Positions 31 to 62,755 are shown, counted from the first letter of the stretch. The stretch is DNA of 64,000 nt from Octopus sinensis (GCF_006345805.1 NC_043003.1:82274001-82338000), one strand, 5' to 3'. Translations and numbers: made by a program. The notes: generated by a model from the letters alone, not told the origin.

Positions 31-68
31 CTGTCCGACGAACGGGAACGTGAAACTCCGAGTAACAG
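31..68 (+). ncRNA. Minimal type I hammerhead ribozyme, U4C core variant
   Basis: Stem I CTGT(31-34)/ACAG(65-68); core CCGACGA(35-41); stem II ACG-GGAA-CGT; GAAA; stem III ACT-CCG-AGT; GUA triplet with predicted cut after 64. Decayed relatives at about 32789-32827 (-) and 34593-34630 (+). Confidence 0.7.
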
Positions 69-332
69 CTTTTGTTAAGTTTCTGCTGCTTTTAAACAAA
101 GTATATATATATATATATATATATATATATATATATATATATATATATATATATAAACGCCTTCAAATAGACCTACACATGTGACTACTGCATCGATTTG
201 TAAATATATTTATATATATAGGGCATCCATAAAGCCTCTTTACAATTTCAAGAATTTATTACGAAGGCAAATAAATAGATAAATGTGTGGAAATTTTTAC
301 AAAATGAGATTTTAAATGTTTTGTTTCTTCAT

Positions 333-1122
333 TTAATACATCTCTCTATGGACACCATTAATTGCACGAAGCACACCAAGACGGTAATGAATTTCTAGCC
401 ATGTTCCTTGTAGCATAGCCTTAACAATGGTGGCAATGGCATCAGTGATCCTTTCCTTTAGGCCGTTGATATCTCGTTTTTTCGGTACACGATGTCTTTA
501 GCATAACCGTTTGTTCGATACACGATGTCTTTAGCATAACCCCATAGAAAAAAATCCAGTGATATTCGGGGAATGATATGGCTATGGAATTGGACCATCT
601 CTTCGAATCCCCTGGTCTAGTAGTGTTTAATTTAGGAGCCCACGAGCATGCATTCCCCAATGTGGTGGGGCCCCATCCTCTTTGAAAATGATGGCTGGTT
701 GAAGATCATCCAGTTGTGGGGTCACATAGTCGGTCAAAAGATCAAGGTAAGCATTTTCAGAGCTTGATCACTCTGTGAAGTAAAATGGACCAAGGATTCG
801 ATTGCGCATCATCCTACACCAGACATTCACCTTTTGTCCACGTCGGGCTACTTCCCTAGTCACATGGGAGTGTTCTTCATATTATGTGTGAAATATGAAA
901 GGTTGCTTCATCACTAAAATGAACTCAGGTGAGGAATATTGCATCAACAGAAATTCGTTCCAGCATGTAAACTGCAAACTCATTTCGTCTTGGTTTATCT
1001 TTTTATTCGAGTGCTTGTAAGCGTACAATCAATGTCGAAAGTGGTAGCAGTAGCTGTTTGGTAGCAGTACGTATGAACAATATAGAAGAACTAGCAAAGG
1101 CTTGTCTTATACGATCAATGTT
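333..1122 (-). pseudogene. Mariner/maT-like transposase remnant (stops and frameshifts, N-terminus missing)
   Basis: Minus-strand translation gives ENIDRIRQAF..., VHFSDEATFH, PQLDDLQPAIIFKEDGAPPHW, LDFFLWGYAKDIVY and LKERITDAIATI, matching the DD..D catalytic motifs. Confidence 0.9.
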
Positions 1123-1284
1123 TTCCCCAGATAATGGACGGATTATAACCACTAGGAAGTGGCTGAGTGGGTGACATGTTGAGCCTCTACAGCTCACTAT
1201 AGGTCTTAATGGAATACCACCCTTGTGAATCTAATGTATACCGTACATGTGCGGTAGTTTACTGTAGTGTTGAGTCAGTTGTCT
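1123..1284 (-). pseudogene. Penelope-like reverse transcriptase N-terminal fragment, inverted relative to the adjacent endonuclease
   Basis: KLPHMYG..HKGGIPLRPIVSCRGSTCHPLSHFL matches the PLE RT motif YGLPKIHK..PLRPIVS. Confidence 0.85.
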
Positions 1285-1783
1285 GTAAAAGAGAGGATGG
1301 AACCAATAAATTGTCTAAAGTCTGTCTACCCTATGTAAAAGGCCTCTCCTAAAAGATACAAAAGATATGCGGCCCATATGACATCGGGGCAGTATTTAAG
1401 AGTAATACAACACTTCGCAAATATCTCCTTCGGGTAAAACCACCAATAGAAGAGAATATGACCAAAACCTGCGTGTAGTCCATCCCATTCAACTCTGTTA
1501 GGTTATACAAAGCCGAAACATGCCGCCCCCTCAAAATAAGTGTAGAGGAACATCGCAAAGTTGCGACACGATGAGATATTGATAAAATCGGGGATAGCTG
1601 ATCATGTATGGAACAATGGAGACCCTCCCTGTTAGATGAAGCTAAAATAATAGACAGAGAACACCACTGGAAAATACGAAAACTAAAAGCAGCAGTACAT
1701 ATGCTAGGACACAACCTCCTAAGCAGACCGAATAGCATACGGGAACCGGTATTAAGGAAGGATAGAAAAATATTAAATTTATA
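1285..1783 (+). pseudogene. Penelope-like C-terminal region with GIY-YIG endonuclease remnant
   Basis: VCLPYVKGLS*KIQKIC...VFKSNTTLRKYL...CV*SIPF...LYKAETCRPLKISVEEHRK...GIADHVW...KIIDREHHWKIRKLK is the typical PLE thumb plus GIY-YIG layout, with stops. Confidence 0.9.
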
Positions 1784-1811
1784 AGCCCTAAAATTCACAC
1801 CATAATTGTCC

Positions 1812-2092
1812 ACGGGCATATGGCGTAGTGTTTAAGAGCGTGGTCTACTAACTCCAAGATTCCGAGTCCGATCCCAGGCAGTGACCTGAATAATAATAAT
1901 AACAACAATAATAATAACAACAACAACAACATCGAAAAATACCTTAGGAATGAGAACCCAGGTTCGAAATTTCCCCAAGACACCTTATGAAGCCTGGAGG
2001 GTATAATAACCGAAACGTTGTGTAAACAAAAAACAATATATCCGTCAAATTTAAATAATGTACATAATTCCTCATCTTTTAAATATAGAATT
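1812..2092 (+). mobile_element. tRNA-headed SINE-like module with (AAT/AAC)n spacer and a decayed hammerhead, forming the 3' terminal region of the PLE
   Basis: A-box TGGCGTAGTGT, B-box-like GAGTCCGATCC, then the microsatellite, then ACAC-CTTATGA...GAAAC-GTT-GTGT (1980-2023; core G5 mutated). A second copy of the head and tail is at 46607-48003. Confidence 0.7.
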
Positions 2093-60609: not shown

Positions 60610-60936
60610 TATTCTTTTATTCGTTTCAGTCATTTGAATGTGGTCATGCTGGAGCACCACCTTTAGTCGAGCAAATCGACCCCAGGACTTATTCTTTGTA
60701 AGCCTAGAACTTATTCTATCGGACACTTTTGCCGAAAAGCTAAGCTACAGGAATGTAAACACACCGGCATCGGTTGTGAAGCGATGTTGAGGGGACAAAT
60801 ACAGACACAAAAACACACACACATACATATACGACGGGCTTCTTTCAGTTTCTGTCTACACAATCCACTCAAAATGCTTTGGTCGGCCCGAGGCTATAGC
60901 AGAAGACACTCGCCCAACGTGCCACGCAGTGTGACT
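60610..60936 (-). mobile_element. SINE (third family), head-truncated
   Basis: TTTCAGTCATTTGAATGTGGTCATGCTGGAGCACC...CGACGGGCTTCTTTCAGTTTCTGTCTAC...GGTCGGCCCGAGGCTATAGCAGAAGACAC. Confidence 0.85.
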
Positions 60937-61424
60937 GAAATTAAAGGGATTTTTCTGCAATTATATTCTCACTTGTTTTCATTTGTTAGTAGGTAAGGGA
61001 AACTACTCGGTTTTACTTGACGGGAGCCATTTGCAAACATACGATATTCTTTTCTTGTAAAATCCTCTTATTTAATTTGAATTATGATATTGATTATGTT
61101 TTAGAGGATAACATATTGGTTTTTAATATTTTAATTAGTTAACTAATTCTTATTATTTAATAGATTATTTTTTCCATTGATTTATCTGTAGGTGGATTGT
61201 CGATGTTGTTTTGTATAGACGTTAAATGCAAATGTTGTTAACAAGTATTTATAATTTGTGAATTGTCATTTGAAGTAACAGTGTAGTGTATTTATATATT
61301 TTTCTGTTTTTTAGTGGTCTGGCGTTCGGTTAATTGTTTTCTATCATAATTTAATTGTTTGCTCCTTTCTGGCCTATTATAAAGGTCTTTATATTTGTTG
61401 GTAGAACTCATTCATTCTAACAAT

Positions 61425-61515
61425 GAATTCCAGAGGAAAAGCGTAATTTGCGAATTCAAAGTTATATTTCATTTTGTTTTGCATTAATTAGGCTTCGAAA
61501 GAACTTGTAGAATTT
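61425..61515 (+). ncRNA. Decayed type I hammerhead with long stem II
   Basis: Stem I GAATTC/GAATTT; core CAGAGGA (U4 mutated); stem II AAGC...GCTT with inner TGCGAA/TTTGCA; GAAAG-AACTT-GTA. Confidence 0.5.
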
Positions 61516-62081
61516 TGATTGGATATATGTACCATCTTGGAATAAAGTAACGTCACCACATATATTTTTTCTTTCCTTATACTTTACACACACAGACATA
61601 TATATATATATATATATATATATATATATATATATATATAATATATATATATATATATATATATATATATATATCCTTCTTCCCTTCTTTCCTGAGTGTC
61701 CAATAATACTTTATTTGTTCCACATCCTTGCGTTGTTGTTTTTTTGTTTTCTTGTTTGGATTAACTTTATATATATATATATATAATATATATAATATAT
61801 ATATATATATATATATATACCTATATATATATATATATGCACAGTCTTGCACACACCCACACACAAACACGCACACACACATACGTGTAAGATAAACTTA
61901 CTTGGAGATGGATTCCTGGCGGGCGTTCCATTAAATGATAATAGTAAATTATATATATATATATATATATATATATATATATATATATATCTATATATCC
62001 CAAAGTGGGGTTGTAGGGTACCGCACGAGTGGAATAATATACGAAAGAAGTTTTGAAAATGCAATTTTAAAATATTTTTAT

Positions 62082-62126
62082 TTACTTTACCGGTTTCACT
62101 CTTTGGAAAAAGTTTGTCAAAAGTAA
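62082..62126 (-). ncRNA. Minimal type I hammerhead with U3:A8 core
   Basis: TTACTT-TTGACAA-ACTTTT(TCCA)AAGAGT-GAAAC-CG-GTA-AAGTAA; perfect 6-bp stem I. Confidence 0.7.
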
Positions 62127-62710
62127 CATGTAAAAGTTTGGTTGTGTTAATTATTGGTTGTTACAATATGCTACATTACATTTATACAGTCTCTGGTAAC
62201 AAGAACATGTTAAGGACATAAAAAAGTTTAACAAGTCCCTTAAAATATTGGGCACAAAAGATTGTAACATAAATATACATTCTCAAGAAACTGTTAAAGA
62301 TAGTTTCCAGAAGGAATTATTAAAAAGTTCAGTGGGATATTGGTATAGTATCTGTATATTCAAATACGCACAGAATATTGGTTGTCACAGAGCACTACAA
62401 TATATATATATATACATTCTTTGGTAACAAGAGCATGTTAAGAACATAAAAAAGTTTAACAAGTTCATTGAAATATTGGGCACAGATACAATACCAATAT
62501 CTCACTGAACGTTTTAATAATTCCTTCTGAAAACTATCTATAACATTTTCTTGATAATGTATATTTATGTTATAATCTTTTGTGCCCAATATTTTAAGGG
62601 ACTTGTTAAACTTTCTTATGTCCTTAATATGTTCTTGTTACCAGAGACTGTATAAATGTAATGTAGCATATTGTAACAACCAATAATTAACACAACCAAA
62701 CTTTTACATG

Positions 62711-62755
62711 TTACTTTTGACAATCTTTTTCCAAAGAGTGAAACCGGTAAAGTAA
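62711..62755 (+). ncRNA. Minimal type I hammerhead with U3:A8 core (mirror copy)
   Basis: TTACTT-TTGACAA-TCTTTTTCCAAAGAGT-GAAAC-CG-GTA-AAGTAA. Confidence 0.65.

Follow-up and report, generated by a model that had tools for sequence, protein, structure and literature searches.

Minimal type I hammerhead motifs in a 64-kb window of the Octopus sinensis genome and their probable link to Penelope-like elements

A stretch of 64,000 nucleotides (nt) of Octopus sinensis DNA (GCF_006345805.1, NC_043003.1:82274001-82338000; G000:C7:82,274,001-82,338,000 in our own numbering; hereafter the window), with a GC content of 32% and from a genome of 2.72 Gb, was analyzed for small hammerhead ribozymes. A sequence-only reading had listed twelve complete or near-complete type I folds at 11 sites, together with twelve half-motifs or decayed copies, and had attributed them to non-autonomous, ribozyme-processed retroelements mobilised by Penelope-like elements (PLEs), which encode a reverse transcriptase (RT) and a GIY-YIG endonuclease (EN). 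Eight of the twelve main motifs passed our type I descriptor: 31-68 (+ strand), 13177-13227 (−), 13229-13279 (+), 35045-35124 (−; boundaries as given by the descriptor scan), 50969-51031 (+), 57034-57069 (+), 62082-62126 (−) and 62711-62755 (+). Six of the twelve passed with a canonical core or with a core carrying U3-A8, the latter being the case for the last two motifs, and two further ones carry C4 (31-68) or U6 (57034-57069). The window copies at 1980-2023, 25419-25456, 35488-35562 and 61425-61515 failed. The majority sequences of their families have canonical or U3-A8 cores, and judged by these majorities the four are mutated copies of families with intact cores. The 61425 majority sequence itself fails at the helix II length limit of the descriptor, while one copy of this family passes in another scan.

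A strict type I descriptor without an extra base after A9 missed most of the sites, and with one core mismatch allowed it gave 11 matches against 6.6 in shuffled sequence. So little was found in this way because these folds carry an extra base after A9. The working descriptor allowed this base as well as U3-A8, C4 and U6 cores, and it was controlled with 30 local dinucleotide shuffles of the window, in which the eight passing main motifs were set against a mean of 0.17 and a maximum of 1. The variant cores were chosen after the window had been viewed, so held-out DNA is the fair test. In 40 evenly spaced 10-kb stretches (400 kb) there were 10 matches against 0.5 expected from six shuffles, and 7, against 0-3 in ten shuffles, once the descriptor had been slightly widened and given a score floor. 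Six decoy cores yielded one match in the held-out sample and one in the window. The shuffled control that had been proposed along with the reading came out in its favour, with fewer matches in shuffled than in real DNA. None of the best 150 of 375 Rfam matches in the window belonged to a hammerhead family; these 150 were microsatellite or hairpin look-alikes below the gathering scores.

When the helices and the GAAA were fixed and the core was left free, 845 kb of loci that had been chosen around hammerhead families gave 41 distinct frames, 27 of them with hammerhead-type cores, and a random sample gave 11 frames, four of them with such cores, against none in two shuffles. Across 1.59 Mb of partly overlapping loci, 375 matches fell into 34 clusters, some five of them apparently due to chance, as compared with two matches after shuffling. 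Genome-wide counts of exact family patterns were 387 (F31), 799 (F1980), 230 (F35048), 347 (F50969), 12,543 (F57034) and 377 (F62082), while the reversed-pattern controls gave 0. By rough extrapolation, 7-10 matches per 400 kb correspond to some 40,000-65,000 intact folds per genome. The window lies above the average in hammerheads, in line with the many (TA)n targets there: it has 23.1 (TA)n tracts per 10 kb, against 11.2 in 40 evenly spaced 10-kb samples. Taken together, we hold it highly probable from these patterns that the motifs are multi-copy minimal type I hammerheads of the PLE kind. The alternative that they are chance matches in AT-rich, hairpin-rich DNA could draw on the one-mismatch strict scan and on the secondary sites without support, but it is hardly credible in the face of the window, held-out and decoy results and of hundreds to thousands of exact copies with no reversed match.

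Chance is accordingly refuted for the main list, while the twelve secondary sites had a mixed outcome. Five of them are supported by relatives, namely 9630, where 11 of 14 copies pass, 10713, 32790 and 34600, for which hammerhead-bearing relatives were found, and 23070, whose relatives have a full hammerhead. The site at 54440 is partly supported, as its family majority has the core and a palindromic helix III, but none of 11 copies passes. The remaining six fell away and may be chance matches: 26700 is a single copy in the genome without a family, and no hammerhead-bearing relative of 4120, 20922, 21750, 60500 or 63845 was present among the collected loci, a genome-wide search for these five not having been made.

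The folds have three helices in type I order around CUGANGA...GAAA...UH or its U3-A8 version, with an extra base between A9 and helix II in most families and with long helix II inserts in several. The C3-G8 pair is replaced by U3-A8 in several families, and position 3-8 is C-G or U-A. In 30 unbiased copies of the U6 family, N7 varies freely (T12/A9/C6/G3). U4 and A6 are invariant in all families except F31, with C4 in 12 of 16 readable unbiased copies, and F57034, in which the 12,543 exact U6 copies compare with 128 with A6. As the sequence-only reading had noted, the helix sequences are unlike between the families, which are many and unrelated. Its palindromic stem III holds for all families but one, the exception being the 13178 family with 4 bp and an 8-nt loop; in the odd palindromes the unpaired centre varies while the arms are constant. 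The calculated self-duplex of helix III ranged from -7.8 to -14.1 kcal/mol in five of the six families tested and was -1.7 kcal/mol for the 4-nt one. For most families, helix III closes poorly in the monomer and self-pairs between copies, an arrangement thought to force cleavage as dimers (Cervera and de la Peña 2014, PMC4209133; Weinberg 2019), and the folds are predicted to self-cleave as dimers. Compensatory covariation, the second check proposed with the reading, was found at one pair in helix I (98% of cells paired); the alignment comprised 19 related copies from two sister subfamilies and therefore carries modest weight.

Four of the nine families, F1980, F25419, F57034 and F61425, are the 3' ends (pseudo-long terminal repeats, pLTRs) of RT/GIY-YIG PLEs. 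For F1980, a same-strand hammerhead lies downstream of the EN in 13 of 14 loci. The window copy consists of a decayed GIY-YIG-type EN end with internal stops (1290-1790, +), a tRNA-like segment with A- and B-box-like motifs between the open reading frame (ORF) and the hammerhead (1800-1900, +), and the pLTR (1935-2081, +), in which the hammerhead has decayed by a change at G5 while the family majority is canonical. For F61425, an RT-EN element is bounded at both ends in two loci (L281 and L283) in the order inverted copy, RT, EN, hammerhead. One decayed copy of this element occupies 58691-61623 of the window, with nested repeats between its parts, which are a decayed Hydra-like PLE RT relic with a following segment (58691-59613, +) and the 3' region with the decayed hammerhead (60936-61623, +). 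F25419 follows a Neptune-like RT/EN in L138 and L140, and in the window it forms the 3' end of an old Neptune-like PLE (25385-25620, −) whose hammerhead has decayed from a U3-A8 majority. Finally, F57034 has a GIY-YIG gene upstream in L375, L389, L394 and L403 with common sequence running from the EN to the hammerhead, three of these four loci being 94-97% alike over 1.2-1.4 kb. Its window copy (56986-57156, +), with the U6 fold, lies between (TA)n tracts and represents the 3' end of a GIY-YIG PLE, truncated on its 5' side. Two further links, of F25419 to an ORF in L147 and of F31 to an ORF in L101, were rejected as nested neighbours belonging to separate elements.

The PLE relics that had been reported in the window are real, but they do not qualify as the source of the enzyme, since their frames are interrupted by stops and their own 3' ends account for two of the listed hammerheads. 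The term non-autonomous, likewise, does not suit these four families of protein-coding PLEs and fits only the tandem families at 35048 and 50969 and probably the stub at 13178. PLE machinery nevertheless stands as the likely mobiliser. Candidate enzymes are instead long ORFs elsewhere, of about 780 amino acids (aa). A genome-wide GIY-YIG search gave 149 scored matches among 5,029 candidates, several of them in frames of 760-880 aa, and ORFs of 775-883 aa with RT and GIY-YIG are followed by a hammerhead and (TA)n. Among eight GIY-YIG loci, the frames inspected encode an RT, a cysteine linker and GIY-YIG and are followed by an intact or decayed hammerhead before (TA)n. Pfam returned only a weak GIY-YIG match (E-value 0.012) for five PLE-like proteins. 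Near-identical Neptune-like PLE frames of about 780 aa were seen at several loci (L366-L373), where the U3-A8 hammerheads are intact in some subfamilies and damaged in the 781-aa copies that were viewed. Other long PLE frames lie at L213:537-2381, which has a hammerhead some 600 nt downstream as well as an inverted 5' copy, and at L147:1597-2826, with the CxCx5C linker described for the Hydra clade. The Neptune, Hydra and Penelope-Poseidon labels are tentative, being assigned by eye from linker motifs.

By their sequence, F35048 and F50969 are non-coding tandem retrozymes, with units of 443 nt (GC 37%) and 562 nt (GC 34%), respectively, and one hammerhead per unit. Among 30 unbiased loci each, a PLE protein upstream on the same strand was present in none for F35048 and in one for F50969, the latter lying outside the repeat arm. 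In the window, F35048 is represented by 1.7 units at 34835-35569 (−), of which one fold is intact and the other, at 35488-35562, lacks one helix III base, and by an inverted short arm of 0.3 unit belonging to the same insertion (35569-35680, +). F50969 is represented by 1.3 units with a canonical fold (50496-51223, +). The best copies in the genome are 98-99% identical to these window copies. Among 100 of 230 matches listed, there were up to about nine units in one arm and 12 in one insertion, a head-to-head array of the 443-nt unit with 5 + 7 copies at G000:C7:8513478-8518302.

The insertions of these two families follow a strict plan. All 41 distinct two-armed insertions are head-to-head (19/19 and 22/22), and the outer ends lie at a dinucleotide tract, mostly (TA)n, in 40 of 49 and 60 of 69 cases. 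In F35048, exactly one end is at unit position ~221 in all 15 insertions with both ends visible, while the other end is at ~136-151 in nine of them and at different positions in six; a further four insertions extend beyond the sequence of their locus. In F50969, an end at ~291 is paired with one at ~190-201 in 19 of 22 insertions, the other three having one unclassified end, and no long+long or short+short combination was seen among the 22. The same rule of one long and one short end was found in the head-to-head pairs of five other families (15/15, 6/6, 5/5, 2/2 and 1/1; 29/29 together), one tail-to-tail pair being the exception. The inverted 5' copy, the one-sided tail and the microsatellite target are all present, as in the pLTRs of EN-containing (EN+) PLEs.

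This anatomy bears on two alternatives. In the first, the palindromic elements are miniature inverted-repeat transposable elements (MITEs) or foldback DNA transposons with an accidental likeness to hammerheads, as the long inverted arms at 13153-13303 and 62037-62800 might suggest. The fixed, symmetric terminal inverted repeats of such elements are, however, absent: the arms are unequal, the junction differs from locus to locus, the tail is at one end only, many copies are one-armed or tandem, and four families run into RT/GIY-YIG genes. We regard this explanation as very improbable, and the near-exceptionless PLE insertion anatomy leads us to exclude MITEs. In the second, the tandem families are pLTR-derived satellites that grew locally through unequal crossing-over, or were moved by long interspersed nuclear elements (LINEs). 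Local amplification is discussed by Li et al. 2026 (10.64898/2026.07.22.740005), and LINE ORFs are frequent in the sampled loci, but the arrays are spread over many chromosomes and have two constant internal ends placed head-to-head in (TA)n, like PLE ends, which makes this alternative improbable. Mobilisation of the tandem families by PLEs, in turn, is likely, and we hold this with good confidence.

The 5' junctions are scattered over the unit, indicating that reverse transcription begins within the unit and continues across the cleavage site. Only two of 51 and none of 63 junctions fall within 10 nt of that site, with 2.4 expected in each family. The possibility that 5' ends are set by ribozyme cleavage was rejected for want of a pile-up there, and the description of the elements as ribozyme-processed does not carry over to the inserted copies, as these do not begin at the cleavage site. 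A simple fold-back from the tailed arm was also ruled out, since several short arms exceed their long arms in length. Units and both arms of one insertion usually share insertion-specific variants, as in the C4 and C8 arrays and in L482, and also in L469 and L493.

The simplest account of these features would be one circular monomer primed twice from the nicked strands of a (TA)n tract. A tandem array would be transcribed, and adjacent hammerheads could then pair through their palindromic helix III and release a monomer that is ligated into a circle. The PLE EN would nick both strands of (TA)n, priming by the two 3' ends would take place at a pair of fixed AT-rich sites in the unit, ~85-100 nt apart, and each cDNA would span from 0.1 to 8 or more units, running through the cleavage site. 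Joining of the cDNA ends head-to-head would leave one long and one short outer end. On balance, we consider it probable that the hammerheads mark PLE 3' ends and retrozyme units and that PLEs copy these into (TA)n, probably via RNA circles; for the tandem families, we lean towards a circular template. The joint claim that the young 443- and 562-nt families record double-primed rolling-circle reverse transcription on a ribozyme circle and that the U6 PLE hammerhead works is put forward tentatively, as possible rather than probable.

Several observations weigh against this account. The scatter of the 5' junctions, with no excess at the cleavage site, is predicted equally by an inactive ribozyme on a linear multimer, and shared variants are also expected if the source arrays were already uniform; in L498 and L527 the units differ within the insertion. 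The tandem units showed no sequence homology to any autonomous partner, and one pair (L118), from among the other families, is tail-to-tail. Covariation within families amounts to a single pair among related sequences, and the family with the highest copy count departs from a conserved position by having U6. In vitro, A6C cut activity to <0.1 per min and U4C lowers it (Perreault 2011), minimal PLE hammerheads cleave weakly (Cervera and de la Peña 2014), and one of nine Xenopus elements cleaved (Li et al. 2026). None of the public runs listed as containing the units is registered as RNA. Contigs of four runs, which we guess to be RNA, contain pieces of the 443-nt unit and no joints, and folding of the units as circles (z -1.8 and -5.6) was not discriminating.

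Many of these points fit an explanation in which the elements are mobilised by PLEs but the hammerheads do little. Uncleaved linear multimers, or two RNAs, would be copied, and the fold would persist because of some weak, occasional or non-catalytic role, such as helping dimerisation or RT binding. The cDNAs indeed cross the cleavage site without stopping, U6 copies vastly outnumber A6 copies, published cleavage is low or absent (Li et al. 2026; Cervera and de la Peña 2014), and Naiads do well although they lack canonical hammerheads (Craig et al. 2021, PMC8557442). On the other hand, the core letters and the 3-8 pair are kept over some 30 unrelated families, private variants are common to both arms of one insertion, and one insertion contains 5 + 7 copies where runs in one direction reach ~9 at most (among the 100 of 230 matches listed). 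We find this explanation unlikely, yet the U6 core, the weak published activities and the single cleaving Xenopus element out of nine keep it alive.

The general kind of element is already known, as PLE minimal hammerheads and retrozymes, here in an unusual variety of families, and the idea of PLE-mobilised non-autonomous ribozyme elements, which the reading had also put forward, is in print (Cervera and de la Peña 2014, 2020; Li et al. 2026). Minimal hammerheads were described in the pLTRs of metazoan PLEs, for which a circular template was proposed (Cervera and de la Peña 2014). The octopus motifs resemble that set in being type I, in the extra base after A9, the tiny palindromic helix III and U3-A8, in the many dissimilar families per genome, mostly single truncated copies, and in opposite-strand pairs 100-700 bp apart. 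They differ from it in the cephalopod host, the very abundant U6 family, the C4 families and the long helix II inserts. A circular template was also proposed for retrozymes, with PLEs as the likely mobiliser (Cervera and de la Peña 2020, PMC7229834), and the title of Li et al. 2026, which covers vertebrates, insects and coral (35 genomes, no mollusc among them), claims retrozymes as non-autonomous PLEs. Like the animal non-LTR (non-long terminal repeat) retrozymes, our tandem families consist of low-GC non-coding units with one type I hammerhead each, but the folds in the 443- and 562-nt units look like the minimal PLE type and not like the canonical one. In the available portions of these two reports we found no description of arms placed head-to-head, of a pair of fixed 3' ends or of reading through the cleavage site, and the word "inverted" is absent from the text of Cervera and de la Peña 2020.

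Craig et al. 2021 described the insertion structure of EN+ PLEs as well as non-autonomous tandem PLEs such as MRC1. The partial tandems, the inverted 5'-truncated copy, the tail at one end and the (TA)n targets are shared with the former, and the head-to-tail non-autonomous derivatives with the latter. In contrast to those PLEs, the rule of one long and one short end is near absolute here, with tails of ~40-100 nt, and, unlike MRC1-like elements, which generally share 3' homology with an autonomous partner, the tandem families showed none. In our literature search we found no cephalopod hammerhead census, no U6 core and no two-site end rule for retrozymes; the search did not cover a paper by Lünse, Weinberg and Breaker, which may already hold the U6 and C4 cores. 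That paper (RNA Biol) is said, by its title, to name numerous small PLE-associated variants and dimer cleavage. For an A6U hammerhead, nothing beyond a twister paper came up, two-site priming is absent from the titles and abstract beginnings of the mechanism literature, and a 2026 paper on Octopus vulgaris repeats does not mention ribozymes in the available part of its main text.

A dense and diverse set of such elements in one more invertebrate would not surprise a specialist, and its value lies in the material, as near-identical short non-coding substrates and long candidate PLE ORFs occur in one genome. The function of hammerheads in EN+ PLEs was called unclear, and an in vitro system for tandem and inverted insertions was wanted (Craig et al. 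2021). If true, the double-primed account would give these hammerheads a defined job and provide a minimal substrate for reconstituting the mechanism, with the sharp prediction of two priming sites and read-through of the cleavage site. For the view of retrozymes as non-autonomous PLEs, proposed in 2026, the data supply further anatomical evidence, from outside the vertebrates. They also offer a signature that is useful for the mechanism and, in U6, a strange core variant that is very common. They further suggest that PLE ends are among the repeats that such genomes have on file as unclassified short interspersed nuclear elements (SINEs) or MITEs.

F13228 is a stub of ~125 nt, probably non-autonomous, and forms a hairpin insertion at 13093-13296, in which the motif at 13177-13227 lies in the tailed arm and that at 13229-13279 in the arm without a tail. 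In the young copies, across many independent loci (L056-L080), the 5' end coincides with the first base of helix I, and two older relatives extend further upstream. A 5'-truncated relative of the U6 family without the core (13315-13470, −) shares the same (TA)n tract as this hairpin; the sequence-only reading had not included it. F31 is present as a copy at 18-107 (+), a decayed copy at 32770-32830 (−) and a head-to-head pair of decayed copies at 34533-34670, the last two recognised through relatives. F62082 forms a head-to-head U3-A8 insertion at 62002-62801, its tailed arm containing the motif on the − strand. No PLE ORF lay upstream of F31 in 30 loci, where the common sequence reaches 0.7 kb of the 1.5-kb flank, and no PLE protein upstream of F62082 in 30 loci, where it extends over at least 1.1 kb of the 1.5-kb flank; with this long non-coding upstream sequence, both may be long PLE 3' regions.

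Three further head-to-head or old repeats correspond to secondary sites: a pair with a 3' half-hammerhead in each arm at 9541-9799, whose relatives have the full canonical fold; a 5'-truncated pair at 22882-23145, with U4 and C4 subfamilies among its relatives; and an old repeat, ~80% identical to its relatives, at 54322-54830 (−), in which the core and the palindromic helix III lie at 54440-54530 and helix I is weak. The site at 10713 belongs to a decayed copy of a U3-A8 family related to F25419 (10690-10800, +), again recognised through relatives. A tRNA-like segment like that near 1980 was present in 13 of 14 loci related to F1980, and likewise at 46593-46702 of the window. ARAGORN called no tRNA in 12 loci with such a segment, which could be an internal RNA polymerase III promoter giving rise to SINE-like short copies with a hammerhead. 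At 46036-47900, the window has a frame that we take to resemble the EN end of a LINE, followed by a direct repeat of ~600 nt with AAT tracts. The one-sided tails of the unrelated families F31 (L082) and F13228 (L057) have a short similar stretch in common, possibly a recognition signal of a shared enzyme.

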